From NCBI GenBank assembly GCA_014905635.1, contig JABVCE010000002.1, forward strand, positions 1,054,001-1,118,000: a stretch of 64,000 bases of DNA, in the 5' to 3' direction. Of the stretch, positions 9,790 to 51,560 are shown in pieces. The stretch is from Scenedesmus sp. PABB004 (taxonomy: Eukaryota). How positions within the stretch are numbered: the stretch's first letter is position 1; every line of letters starts with the position of its first letter. Under the pieces are notes generated by a model. The model was not told where the DNA came from. It saw only the letters and a program-made list of their open reading frames with translations, and ran no database searches. The position numbers and the translations under genes were made by a program.

Positions 9790-10105
9790 GCGGAGCCGGG
9801 CGGGCGACAAGGTCTTCGCGGGCGGCGGCGCACAGCCGAACCGGGCGGCAGGCAGGCAGCAGGCGCGCTGAACGGCTGGTTGTACGGGAGCGCAGTTGGC
9901 GTGGGTGTGGGCTGCCTGGCGAGGGCCGCCGGTGCTTGGCGTGCGCCGGCGTCAGAAGCGGTTTGCCGCTGCGCCGCCGCCGCCGGGCGCTTGGGCGCCA
10001 GCCCACGCCGGCGCCAGAGAAACTGCGGATCCGGTGCTGCAGCGACGTGCGTGGGGACCGGGCGGCGTCGCAGGCCGGCAGCGGGGGCCGCGCGCGGGCG
10101 CCGCG

Positions 10106-47677: not shown

Positions 47678-50600
47678 ATGGCGCTGAGCCCGGCTCTCCG
47701 GCGCTGCAGCGCTGCGGCCGCGCCCACGCAGCGGCGCGGTGGCGCGCGCGCCGCCCGCACCGGCCGCGCTCGCGGCCGGGCGCCGCTGCCGCCGCTGCGC
47801 ATGGCCAGCCCGCGGTCCGCACCGGCGCCGGCGGCCATCGAGGGGCCCAGCACCGACATCGCCGTGATCGGAGCGCGCCTGCAGCGGGTGCGGCGCGGCG
47901 CGCGGCGGCGCGGCACGCCGCCGGCGGAGGCGGCGGCGCAACCGTCGCCAACCGCTGCCGCGCGGCGCACACCGCGCGGCGCACACCGCGCGCCGCGGCA
48001 GCTGGTGCTGCCCTACTGGCAGGAGGTCCCGTCGGCGCGCTGGCGCCTGGCGGGCGTGGTGGGGCTCACGCTCGCGACGACGGGCGTGAGGTGCGGCGGG
48101 CGCGCGCGAGTGCGGCGTGTGCGTGCGCGTGGCGTCGCGCGTGGCGTGTGGTCGTGTGTGCTGCCGCCGCGCCCGCCCGCGCGAGGCCGCCCCGCGCAGC
48201 CCCTCCCGCGGCCAGCCCCGCGCCGCGGCGGCCGCGTCGCCGCCGCCGCCGCCGCGCGCCGCAGCGTCGCGTTCAGCTACCTGGGGCGGGACTTTTTCAA
48301 CGCGCTCAGCGAGCGCGACGCGCCGGGGTTTCAGGCGGCGCTGCTGAAGTACCTGGGCGGCTTTGTGGTTGGCATCCCCGTCTTTGTCTTTGCAGACTAC
48401 CTGCAGGTCGGGCGCGGCGCCCACCGCCCACGCGCGCGCCCGGCAGCCACGCGCCGCAGTGACGCGGCGGCAGCGACGCGGCGGCAGAGCGACGCCAGCG
48501 CCAGCGACGCCGCGGCAGAGCGACACGGTGCCCGCCGGGCAGCGGCCGACCGCCCGCGCCAGTGCGCGTGTGTGACGTTGCGGTGGCGCGCCGTCGCGCG
48601 GGGTCGTGCGTGTGCGCGCGTGTGCGTGCCTCTCTCTCTCTCCCCCTCTTCGCGCGCGCCGCCCACGCTCCCTCTCCCTCTCTCTCGCGCGCGCGGCGCG
48701 CCGCCCCACGCGGCGCGCGCGGTCTGGTCGCGCGCAGCGTCGCGTTCAACTACCTGGGGCGTGACTTTTTCAACTACCTCGCCGAGAAGGACGTGGCCGC
48801 GTTCAAGCTGCAGCTGCTCAAGTACCTCGCAGCCTTTGGCGTCGGCATCCCCGTGTATGTCATCAAGGCCTACGCCCAGGCGCGCGGCGGCGGCGCGCGT
48901 GCGCGGACGCTTGCGCGCGTGCGCGGGCGCTTGCGCGCGTGCGCGCGTGCGCGCGTGCGAGAGCGTGCGAGCTTGCGTGTGCGTGTGCGTGTGCGTGTGT
49001 ACGTGTGTGTGCGCGCGCGGGCAGCGCCGCCAGCCCCGCGCGCCAGCCGGGCAGCCACCGGGCAGCCGCCGACGCCAGCGGACGCCAGCGCCGGGCCGCC
49101 CACCGCGCCGCGCGGACGGCGCCGCCGCCGAGCCGGCGCCCGCGCCGCGCGCCGCGCCGGCGGCCCGCGCAGTCGCGGCTCGCGCTTGAGTGGCGCGAGT
49201 GGATGACGGGGCACCTGCTGGAGCAGTACTTTGCCGACCGCTCCTTCTACCAGCTGCAGGCCGGCGCGCTCGTGGACAACCCCGACCAGCGCATCGCCGC
49301 CGACGTCCGGTGCGCGCGCGCCGCCCGCCGGCGCGCCGGCGCGCCGCCGCGCCGGCGCTGCCGCCGACGCGCCGGCGCGCCGCGCAGGCAGTTCACGGAC
49401 GCGGCGCTGGGCCTGTCGCTGACGGTGCTGAACAGCCTCATCGACCTGGTGAGTTTCAGCGGCATCCTCTACTCCATCTACCCGCCCCTCTTTGGCGCGC
49501 TGCTCGCATACTCCATCGGCGGCACGCTCGGCTCGATCGCGCTCGGACGGGTGCGCCGCGCGTCGCCGCCGCGCCGCGCCCGCCGCGTGCCAGCCCCCGC
49601 CCGCTGACCGTCGGCGCCGCGGGGCACGCCGCGCCGCGCCGCCAGTCGCTGGTCGGACTCAACTTCAACCAGGAGGCGGTAGAGGCGGACATGCGGTACG
49701 GGCTCGTGCGCGTGCGCGAGAACGCCGAGTCGATCGCGTTCTACGGCGGCCAGGCGAACGAGATGGCCGCGCTCATGCAGGTGCGGCGCGCGGGCCGCGC
49801 CGCGCCGCCGCCGCGCCGCGCGCTCGGCCCACCTCGCCGCGCTGCGCCGCGCGCGCGCGCAGCGGCTGCGCGCGGTGGTGGCCAACTACGGCGCGCTGCT
49901 GGTCGCGAGCCGCAACCTCGACTTCTTCACCTCCTTTTATCGCTTCCTCATCCAGCTCCTGCCCGCTGCGGTCGTCGCGCCGCTCTTCTTCGCGGGTGCG
50001 GCGCAGCTGCCGCCGGCGCGCTGCGCTCCGCGCCGCGCGCGCGCGCGCGCGCTGCCTCTCACTCCTGCCTCTTCCACGCGCGCGCGCAGGCAAGATTGAG
50101 TTTGGCGTCATCAACCAGAGCTCCTCCGCGTTCAACCACATCCTCAACGACGTCAGCCTCGTCGTGTATCAGGTGACGACGCAGCAGCGCACACAGCACG
50201 CGCAGCACGCGCAGCACGCACAGCACGGCCCGCCGCGCCGCGCCGCCCGAGCCCGCCGCCGCCGCGGCGCGCAGTTTGAGACGCTGGCGGGGTTCAGCGC
50301 GGTCGTGGACCGCCTGGGCGAGTTCCAGGAGGTGGTGGACGTGAAGCTGCGGCACACGCACCCGCGCGTGCGCCGCGCGCGCGCGCCGCCGCGGCCAGCC
50401 TCGCGGCCGCGAGCGCGGCGGCGAGCGTCGACGCGGGCGACCTGCAGCAGCAGGCGCCGCCCGCGCCCGCGCCCGCGGCGGCGGCGGCGGCGCTGGAGCA
50501 GGCAGCCGGCGCGGCGAGCGGCGACGGCGCCGGCGGGGGCGCCGAGCCGGCGGGCCCCAGCATCCAGGTGGTGCACGTGGTGCCCTGGCGGGACGGCGGC

Positions 50601-51560
50601 GCGCCCGCCGACGGGGAGCTGCTGCTGGAGCTGGACGGCGTGAGCATCAACACGCCGGACGGCGGGCTCGCGCTGGTGCAGGACCTGAGCCTGCGCGTGG
50701 CGGCGGGGCGCAGCCTGCTGATCATGGGCCCCAGCGGCGCGGGCAAGACGAGCATGCTGCGCACGCTGGCGGGCCTCTGGGCGAGCGGGCGGGGCACGAT
50801 CTACTCGCACGGCCTCGCCGGCCTCGGCGACCCCGGCGCCGCGGGGCAGGGCGCGGGCGGCGGCGTGCTGTTCCTGCCGCAGCGGCCCTACATGGTGCTC
50901 GGCAGCCTGCGCGACCAGCTGCTCTATCCGACCTGGAGCCAGAGCCAGAGCCACGACGGCGGCGAGGCCGGCGACGGCAGCAACGGCAGCGGCGCGCGCG
51001 CGCCGCCGCGGCCGCGGCCGAGCGACGAGCAGCTCGAGGCGGTGCTGCGGCAGGTGCAGCTGGGCTCGCTGCTGCAGCGCTGCGCCGCCGCAGCGGCGGC
51101 GGCGGCGGCGGTCGCGACGCCGGCCGAGGGCGCCGAGGGCGGCCCGCCCCCGGTGATGAGCGCCACGTCGGCGCCGCACGCGGTGCTGTCACCGCCGCCC
51201 GCGGGCGCTGCCGGCGGCGGCGCGTCGTCGGCGCTGGACCACGTCGCCGACTGGAGCGGCATGCTCTCCCTCGGCGAGCAGCAGCGCCTCGCGTTTGCGC
51301 GCCTGCTGCTCGCGGCGCCGCGGCTGGCGCTGCTGGACGAGGCGACGAGCGCGCTCGACACCGCGAACGAGGCCCTGCTCTACGGCGCGCTGCTCGCGAG
51401 CGGCACGACGGTCATCTCGGTGGGCCACCGCCCCAGCCTGGTGGCCTTCCACGAGCAGGTGCTGCAGCTCGGCGGCGGCGGCGGCGGCGGCGGCGCGACG
51501 AGCTGGCGCGTGCTGCCCGCGGCGGAGGCGGCCGCCGCGCTGGCCACGGCGTCGCCGTGA
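47678..51560 (+). CDS. ABC transporter subfamily D, plastid ABCD2/YddA/BacA-like half transporter, with a duplicated alternative exon
   Basis: Transit-like N-terminus, LVDNPDQRI, EAA motif EADMRYGLVRVRENAESIAFYGG, Walker A GPSGAGKTS, FLPQRPYM, LSLGEQQRLAFAR, LLDEATSALD, ISVGHR. Confidence 0.93.
48265..48406 (+). other. ABCD alternative exon A (142 nt, AG acceptor, GT donor)
   Basis: Encodes (S)VAFSYLGRDFFNALSERDAPGFQAALLKYLGGFVVGIPVFVFADYLQ. Confidence 0.88.
48738..48879 (+). other. ABCD alternative exon B (142 nt, AG acceptor, GC donor)
   Basis: Encodes (S)VAFNYLGRDFFNYLAEKDVAAFKLQLLKYLAAFGVGIPVYVIKAYAQ, a paralog of exon A. Confidence 0.85.

Follow-up and report, generated by a model that had tools for sequence, protein, structure and literature searches.

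In animals, mutually exclusive exons of homologous sequence are common. Exons IIIb and IIIc of FGFR2 are of this kind, with exclusivity achieved through reading frame and decay, and the Drosophila MRP gene, which encodes an ABC transporter, carries clusters of alternative internal exons. Documentation in plants and algae is rare, consisting, in the accessible text of the sources cited here, of one verified case in Volvox and unverified predictions in Arabidopsis: exons 4 and 5 of Volvox carteri cyn23 are homologous, equal in length and mutually exclusive, as verified by RT-PCR (PMC4378016), and Kassiopeia, which defines the general class of tandem homologous mutually exclusive exons, holds only predictions for plants, with 99 candidate exons in Arabidopsis that it terms preliminary (PMC3923563). 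The term "mutually exclusive exons" occurs in none of the 10 Scenedesmaceae papers searched.

We analyzed a stretch of 64,000 nucleotides from Scenedesmus sp. PABB004 (contig JABVCE010000002.1; hereafter the window), in which one transporter gene carries a candidate pair of this class. The gene corresponds to an annotated ABCD-type protein of the strain (P0001), whose model joins exon 1, exon A and exon 3 of the structure listed below. Pfam placed ABC_membrane_2 (PF06472) on exon 3 (E 2.2e-12) and on the open reading frame at 48765-49604 (E 3e-13), and ABC_tran (PF00005) on 50640-51557 (E 7.9e-17), an order of membrane domain followed by one nucleotide-binding domain (NBD) that recurs in the predicted structure of the protein, where long helices precede a single NBD. 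Neither 47-residue exon peptide (A or B) was recognized by Pfam by itself, and none of the five long minus-strand ORFs over the region matched a Pfam family. Among the full-length matches (41-78% identity), many are named "ABC transporter D family member 2, chloroplastic", and the best solved half-transporter matches were 6tqe (Rv1819c; E 4.8e-61) and ABCD4 (E 6e-54). Judged by the names of these matches rather than by a subfamily tree, the nearest relatives are ABCD2-type and not peroxisomal ABCD1-type; the sequence thus reads as an ABCD-family half-transporter of the plastid-type ABCD2 group, in agreement with the initial annotation, which had called a plastid-type ABCD transporter. The gene shares the half-size ABCD architecture (ABC_membrane_2 plus ABC_tran) with Arabidopsis ABCD2 (At1g54350), Rv1819c (6tqe) and ABCD4; by contrast, its alternative exon pair was not seen in the proteins of other relatives inspected. 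In the accessible text of two sources, AtABCD2 has a transit peptide that directs it to the chloroplast inner envelope (bioRxiv 10.1101/2024.02.14.580295), and its function was termed unknown in a 2012 review (PMC3355763). The algal protein begins with a long, Arg/Ala-rich extension predicted at low confidence (pLDDT below 50 at residues 1-57 and 79-107), and this, together with the analogy to AtABCD2, makes it a putative plastid protein. The part of the gene that concerns us is organized as follows:

47678..48090, plus strand: exon 1, an exact match to P0001 residues 1-137, with the start codon, the N-terminal extension and the start of the first transmembrane helix (TM1); ends in phase 2
48091, plus strand: exon 1 donor, GTGCGG, read in the sequence
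48091..48264, plus strand: intron 1, GT...CAG, 87% G+C
48265..48406, plus strand: exon A, 142 nt, a 100% match to P0001 residues 138-185; 63% G+C; donor GTCGGG
48407..48737, plus strand: intron between exons A and B, 331 nt, 81% G+C, with a CT-rich tract at 48629-48706 (repeat family D8)
48738..48879, plus strand: exon B, 142 nt, intact and in the same phase as exon A; 60% G+C
48762..48764, plus strand: TGA, the first stop (codon 194) when both exons are included
48880..48885, plus strand: candidate GC donor of exon B, GCGCGC, whose use would be required for an exon B product of canonical length
48880..49172, plus strand: intron between exon B and exon 3, 293 nt, 85% G+C, its 5' part rich in GT/GC repeats
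49173..49311, plus strand: exon 3, an exact match to P0001 residues 186-231, encoding the next part of TM2 and the conserved ABC_membrane_2 core
49204..49206, plus strand: TGA, the first stop (codon 149) when both exons are skipped

Exons A and B are neighbors on one strand, not separated by any constitutive exon, and are flanked by exons 1 and 3. Both follow a CAG acceptor, are entered in phase 2 and left in phase 0, and contain no stop or indel; coordinates and phases, re-read from the sequence, agree with those originally given for two paralogous 142-nt exons. The copies are identical at 103 of 142 nt (39 differ) and at 29 of 47 whole codons, a count that becomes the 30/48 amino acids reported earlier once the split Ser codon common to both is added. 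This pair is the sole long direct repeat within 47990-49320 (48260-48419 versus 48733-48892, 73%), and the similarity extends only ~5 nt upstream and 13 nt downstream of the exons, beyond which the flanking introns are no longer alike. Although the first 37 nt of A and B are identical at 35 positions, their synonymous sites are indistinguishable from those of the remainder (Fisher p 0.36). Exon 1, either of the two exons, and exon 3 together form an open frame. Since 142 is not a multiple of three, only an mRNA with a single copy can encode the transporter: joining A to B runs into the TGA at 48762-48764, 8 codons into B, and omission of both runs into the TGA at 49204-49206, which bears out the frame logic on which the initial annotation rested.

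The claim that acceptors and donors are all intact stands for both CAG acceptors and the GT donor of exon A, but the donor of exon B is GC (GCGCGC), whereas the other donors read in the gene are GT in 7 of 7 cases. GC-AG introns usually have a strong extended donor with the consensus AG/GCAAGT; the context of exon B, CAG/GCGCGC, is weak and resembles the gene's own GTGCGC donors, not GCAAGT. The intron at 48880-49172 begins with GC and ends with AG. Possible GT donors lie nearest to exon B at 48899, where the extra 19 nt would break the frame, and at 48919, where an extra 39 nt would preserve it and add 13 residues. A canonical-length product from exon B would need this GC-AG intron, making GCGCGC a candidate donor. 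In a relative with only one full copy of the exon (L001/L002), the corresponding donor is also GC (GCAAGT), and two B-type ORFs on Tetradesmus-like contigs (P0100 and P0223) read Val directly after the exon, which implies a GT there.

Several lines of evidence bear on whether exon B is a maintained coding exon. Scored against a family profile made from the exon peptides of 32 relatives, with the window's own A and B left out, exon A reached 85.3 bits and exon B 84.3 bits. Exon B retains all 11 invariant columns of a 34-sequence alignment (A1), shows 51-69% identity with the 98 proteins retrieved with exon A, and has a G+C content of 60% as compared to 81-85% in the adjoining introns. When the observed 39 differences were placed at random in a neutral simulation of 4 x 2000 copies, none of the 8000 reached 70 bits (maximum 56.1 bits), and a stop was gained in 913-1422 of each 2000. 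Counting against this are the even spread of A/B differences over codon positions (10/15/14) and a Nei-Gojobori dN/dS of ~0.54, a value that comes from 47 codons only. The profile scores, invariant columns and simulation support the view that both copies have been kept by selection, and by the same measures exon B is not a decaying copy. An exhaustive HMMER search with exon B retrieved 163 proteins at E<=0.001; a word-indexed search yielded 0 matches among 12 candidates, which reflects a limit of the index and not decay of exon B. Exon B was absent from every annotated protein of PABB004 found, and protein searches found no protein carrying it at high identity (best 70-72%). At exon position 43, exon B has Lys, as do other Chlorophyceae, and exon A has Ala-Asp where relatives have a basic residue. 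From sequence comparison, B is the conservative copy and A the derived one, which corrects the opposite expectation.

The same pair occurs in a second genus. It was found in Tetradesmus obliquus, where proteins P0232 and P0324, from two records, contain an A-type segment (85.7 bits), 41 further residues, a B-type segment (90.2 bits) and then exon 3. Single-copy models also exist, joining exon 1, B and exon 3 in T. obliquus (P0325) and A and exon 3 in Scenedesmus NREL 46B-D3 (P0235); like P0001, these are gene predictions, not reads. The annotation of T. obliquus UTEX 393 was produced, according to the accessible text of its report, with RNA-Seq-guided BRAKER1 (bioRxiv 10.1101/425934), and the T. 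obliquus entries probably derive from it. Between PABB004 and T. obliquus, A matches A at 33/47 residues and B matches B at 32/47, as compared to 26-29/47 for A against B; the copies match better across species than within species. Type-specific residues are present in both species: Tyr13, Gly34 and Lys43-Ala44 in B, and Ser4, Asp44 and Leu46 in A. We built trees with IQ-TREE on 24 sequences and with FastTree for a larger set of 150 peptides. In the IQ-TREE maximum likelihood tree the two B exons pair (UFBoot 73) and the A-type clade has little support (UFBoot 49); the AU test does not reject separate duplications in each species (delta lnL 10.1 and 9.0, p 0.215 and 0.318). Each copy is 68-70% conserved between PABB004 and T. 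obliquus, as compared to 229/244 identical residues in the remaining membrane domain, so constraint on each copy is relaxed; the change per copy, 30-32%, exceeds the 17% of the Hariotina/Flechtneria exon at equal overall divergence, a rate ~1.8x faster. In the proteins of Hariotina, Flechtneria and Chromochloris, a B-like exon is the only version seen. Of 117 confirmed metagenome loci, the best 80 contained no second full tandem copy; this set left out the contigs with the most A-like or B-like environmental ORFs (P0002, P0100, P0101 and P0127). A-type and B-type ORFs could not be linked to each other by the lengths of their contigs.

In the predicted structure, the exon-coded segment starts with the final 15 residues of TM1, passes through a turn of 3 residues and takes in the first 29 residues of TM2, consistent with the TM1-loop-TM2 placement initially proposed. 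Isoforms made with A or B would be expected to differ at 18 of 47 residues. Among these differences is a conserved swap in the TM2 portion encoded by the exon, near its NBD-side end, where A has Ala/Thr-Asp and B has Lys-Ala.

With the anatomy, the selection on both copies and the conservation of the pair demonstrated at the level of sequence, we consider it probable that the ABCD2 gene of PABB004 contains a conserved pair of homologous mutually exclusive exons, both kept as working coding exons. The second coding exon would have been duplicated in tandem before PABB004 and T. obliquus split, both copies being retained; exactly one of A and B would be spliced in, giving two mRNAs and two transporter isoforms, with exon B leaving through its GC donor. 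Transcripts with both exons or neither would meet an early stop and are predicted targets of nonsense-mediated decay, and the two proteins may differ in function.

The most serious competitor, to which we give a minor but real share of the probability, is that exon B was long functional and is now a silent relic in PABB004, a GT-to-GC change having killed its donor so that A is constitutive and one protein is made. The weak context of a GC donor in a gene whose seven other introns start with GT, the GT of the Tetradesmus-like B-type exons, and the use of A in the sole annotated protein all fit such a loss, and the simulation rules out long neutral drift but not a recent event. Yet exon B is undamaged in its profile score, invariant residues and G+C content, its conservation between species equals that of A (32 versus 33 of 47), and the relative with a single copy splices that exon from a GC donor. 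Less probable still is that splicing is either/or but unregulated and the isoforms equivalent, the redundant duplicate being kept by chance or dosage. The accelerated change of each copy is what such a history might produce, and no competing RNA structure stands out from shuffled sequence; pure redundancy, however, does not predict that type-specific residues are retained in both species, and both copies are undamaged in two lineages.

That A and B enter one mRNA, an extra small exon restoring the frame and a helical hairpin being inserted, is very improbable, although the T. obliquus models P0232 and P0324 (948 and 960 residues) are annotated so. Tandem alternative exons are often merged by gene predictors into a single model, and Caulerpa models display forced inclusion of this kind; none of the other aligned relatives has anything corresponding to the 41-residue T. 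obliquus linker, and direct joining in the window stops after 8 codons. Least probable of all, to the point of being negligible, is an assembly artefact in which two haplotypes or strains were collapsed side by side: nothing was found in its favor, the copies differ at 39/142 nt and sit in unrelated introns, and the A-then-B order recurs in T. obliquus proteins from two records, so the early judgment that an artefact is unlikely holds.

Returning to mutually exclusive splicing as the preferred reading, the closest counterpart is Volvox cyn23, also in a chlorophycean alga, where two neighboring homologous exons, each 106 nt long and likewise not divisible by three, yield equal-length isoforms with differences at certain residues. 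It differs in encoding a soluble cyclophilin and in having been verified by RT-PCR, whereas the window holds a membrane transporter with one GC donor and comparative evidence only, from two genera. The initial annotation held that such exons are rarely described in the green lineage; rare documentation in the plant and algal literature agrees with this, but the Volvox case had already been verified by RT-PCR (PMC4378016), and the accessible account of it makes the present pair an addition to a kind already shown there. The pair further resembles the FGFR2 class in being tandem duplicates of the same frame and similar length, in the frameshift that follows from including both or neither, and in placing the variable segment within a folded domain; unlike that animal class, it lies in a unicellular or coenobial green alga, and no splicing regulators or competing RNA structures were identified in the window. 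A screen for competing or looping structures turned up 35 GC-rich inverted-repeat pairs; in five duplex tests against dinucleotide shuffles, three results were ordinary and two marginal (z ~-2, 4/200 shuffles each), neither of the latter being significant after correction for the five tests. Drosophila MRP likewise exchanges membrane-domain segments of an ABC transporter through alternative homologous exons, and differs in being an animal gene of the ABCC subfamily with several variants per cluster.

A more ambitious reading, which we offer tentatively and consider on balance doubtful, is that Scenedesmaceae hold an old, regulated one-of-two exon switch in a plastid-envelope ABCD2 that changes function through the trans-side turn and a charge pair. 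If true, one ABCD2 gene would yield two homodimers and a heterodimer; the isoforms would be distinguished by the trans-side turn and by the charge pair at the NBD-side end of the exon-coded TM2 (acid in A, base in B), and substrate range or gating would differ between them, as the initial annotation had envisaged for a splicing switch with possible heterodimers. The pair would then be a case, outside animals, of conserved mutually exclusive exons that alter the function of a membrane transporter. Since the pair is intact in two genera and lies within the membrane domain of a chloroplast-type ABC transporter, it offers a clean test case for whether exon duplication replaces gene duplication in the diversification of transporters in green algae, and for whether frame-enforced exclusivity operates there. 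It also bears on annotation, as public models of this ABCD2 gene drop one exon or force both into one protein.

The half-transporter gene of Scenedesmus sp. PABB004 carries two tandem exons, A and B, between exon 1 (47678-48090) and exon 3 (49173-49311):

48265-48406, exon A: 142 nt, CAG acceptor before it
48738-48879, exon B: 142 nt, CAG acceptor before it

The initial annotation had proposed these as mutually exclusive alternatives, and re-reading the sequence bore out most of its description: firstly, the exons share length and phase, contain no stops or indels, and are paralogous, with 103/142 nt and 29/47 codons identical, the latter at the level of encoded residues (23 codons identical, 6 differing synonymously, 18 non-synonymously); secondly, exon 1, either single copy and exon 3 form an open frame; thirdly, joining A to B creates a stop 8 codons into B, and skipping both creates one at 49204-49206. 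The claim of intact donors held for exon A, which like six other introns of the gene uses GT (7/7), but not for exon B, which is followed by GCGCGC, a GC dinucleotide. Of the nearest GT sites 3' of B, 48899 would cause a frameshift and 48919 would insert 13 extra residues halfway through TM2, so the canonical B product would require a GC-AG intron. A GC donor does serve the homologous exon in a metagenome relative (loci L001 and L002). There, one full 142-nt exon has the in-frame donor GCAAGT, and downstream of it the 3' end of the exon, donor included, is partially repeated twice (69 nt each):

L001, 315-573: exon plus partial repeats
L002, 384-642: exon plus partial repeats

The gene's annotated product (P0001, 838 residues, exon A only) maps to 47678-51557 in eight exact-match blocks that cover all residues but 452. 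Although NCBI names it 'ABCC2 [Scenedesmus sp. PABB004]', its sequence places it in the ABCD family, because Pfam assigns ABC_membrane_2 to exon 3 and ABC_tran to the last exon, the closest solved half-transporters are Rv1819c (6tqe, E 4.8e-61) and ABCD4, and the name 'ABC transporter D family member 2, chloroplastic' is carried by many of the full-length relatives. Arabidopsis ABCD2 has a transit peptide directing it to the chloroplast inner envelope (bioRxiv 10.1101/2024.02.14.580295) and a function listed as 'unknown' in a 2012 review (PMC3355763).

Whole-protein searches for relatives revealed both exon types in Tetradesmus obliquus. In this species P0232 (948 residues) and P0324 (960 residues) run from exon 1 through an A-type segment (85.7 bits against a profile of relatives' exon peptides), a 41-residue linker absent from every other aligned relative, and a B-type segment (90.2 bits) to exon 3. 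A third T. obliquus protein (P0325, 872 residues) joins exon 1 directly to the B-type segment and then exon 3, and in Scenedesmus sp. NREL 46B-D3 (P0235) an A-type segment is joined to exon 3. An annotation of T. obliquus UTEX 393 is described as RNA-Seq-guided BRAKER1 (bioRxiv 10.1101/425934); we infer that this annotation is the source of the T. obliquus entries and that reads support the B-only isoform. A B-like exon also occurs in Flechtneria rotunda (transcript-derived proteins), Hariotina and Chromochloris (models).

Between PABB004 and T. obliquus, 33/47 residues are identical for A and 32/47 for B, as compared to 26-29/47 for A against B within or across the two species. In a 24-sequence set, Tyr13 and Lys43-Ala44 are common to both B exons and to no other sequence, and Ser4, Asp44 and Leu46 are common to the A exons. 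Position 43 is Lys or Arg in 12/12 other chlorophycean exons of this set, so A is derived and B is the more conservative of the two. Each copy evolves faster than its surroundings: outside this exon, PABB004 and T. obliquus agree at 229/244 positions of the membrane domain, and Hariotina and Flechtneria, which are equally far apart overall, share 39/47 residues in the exon.

Trees of the exon peptides agree only weakly with an A-type and B-type grouping across species. FastTree (150 distinct peptides) placed A within a 16-tip clade (support 0.88), and B with two environmental B-like ORFs (0.76-0.84), a further environmental protein (P0011) and Chromochloris; IQ-TREE (24 sequences) paired the two B exons (UFBoot 73) but gave the A clade low support (UFBoot 49). 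Separate duplications in each species were not rejected by AU tests (p 0.215 and 0.318). Under either duplication history, each species retains both copies, undamaged and identically ordered.

Scored against a profile of exon peptides from 32 relatives, the window's own exons excluded, A reached 85.3 bits and B 84.3. In a 34-sequence alignment B keeps 11/11 invariant columns and, at the nearly invariant Gln25, B rather than A matches the family; against 98 proteins retrieved with A, B is 51-69% identical. In simulations that scattered the observed 39 differences randomly over A or over B, under a uniform or an intron-like base bias and with 2000 replicates per setting, the copies scored 21-24 bits on average (maximum 56.1, none reaching 70), and 913-1422 of each 2000 contained a stop. 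The exons are 63% (A) and 60% (B) G+C, as compared to 81-87% in the three surrounding introns, and recognisable similarity of the duplicated unit extends just 5 nt upstream and 13 nt downstream of the exons. Profile scores, simulation, composition and these limits together show that selection held the exons while the introns diverged, and they exclude long neutral decay of exon B. Against this, A/B differences are spread evenly over codon positions (10/15/14), and A/B dN/dS is near 0.54 (47 codons). The main rival, that exon B recently fell silent in PABB004, is compatible with the evidence against long decay, and we consider it unlikely.

Our preferred reading is that A and B are probably a conserved alternative exon pair. 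The pair appears to show every sequence feature by which the Kassiopeia paper (PMC3923563) defines homologous mutually exclusive exons. The closest verified parallel is Volvox cyn23 (PMC4378016); the PABB004 pair, a candidate identified by sequence comparison, is easy to test.

For P0001, AlphaFold2 run on a 35-sequence alignment predicts helices at 118-153 and 157-206 (mean pLDDT 73 overall, with block means of 87-93 across residues 121-190). The exon encodes residues 139-185 and would therefore supply the final 15 residues of TM1, a turn of 3 residues and the initial 29 of TM2. The 18 A/B differences form two clusters: one surrounds the turn, at exon positions 13-25, and the other, at 40-46, includes the acid/base swap.

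The frame rule is the only exclusivity mechanism visible in the sequence. Both introns at the pair are of ordinary type, and with 331 nt of intron between A and B, their spacing does not bar double inclusion. A search for competing RNA duplexes found nothing beyond shuffles after correction. One 24-nt pairing of the exon A acceptor (48244-48267) with the exon B donor region (48872-48895), 88% complementary, was marginally beyond shuffles in energy (z -2.1, 4/200). At 48629-48706, 30-110 nt upstream of the B acceptor, there is a pair of CT-rich direct repeats (36 nt, 75% alike), a composition unusual among otherwise GC-only introns; this tract may have a regulatory role or serve as a polypyrimidine element. 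Over their first 37 nt (48265-48301 and 48738-48774) the exons differ at 2 sites, as compared to 37 in the other 105 nt, and share the rare codons GGG and TTT; gene conversion or RNA-level constraint could account for this near-identity, for which a synonymous-site test was not significant (p 0.36).

Among the best 80 of 117 confirmed metagenome loci, the 78 other than L001 and L002 had no second copy of at least 8 bits on the same strand. In L006 (ORF P0104), a short gapped stretch at about 9900-10000 resembles the exon start, in the same frame about 25 codons upstream of exon 2, and might be what is left of an earlier copy. Caulerpa lentillifera models (P0003, P0099) contain a first copy (85.2 bits) and, immediately after it at residues 153-190, a partial, strongly diverged second (36.7 bits), which may reflect a further tandem duplication of an exon, with both copies forced into a single gene model.

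G+C is 76-81% throughout the window; a comparative paper gives 39.8 Mb and 78.5% for the genome (PMC12571836). Elsewhere in P0001, an apparent 102-nt in-frame intron (50173-50274, GTGACG...CAG) is translated, giving 34 extra residues absent from relatives; residues 411-448 in this area are modelled with low confidence (pLDDT below 50). Finally, the family-conserved Glu-Phe-Gln-Glu-Val after '...DRLG' is missing from annotated P0001; because the genome encodes it in frame (about 50320-50400) and relatives have it, the intron annotated there is probably misplaced.
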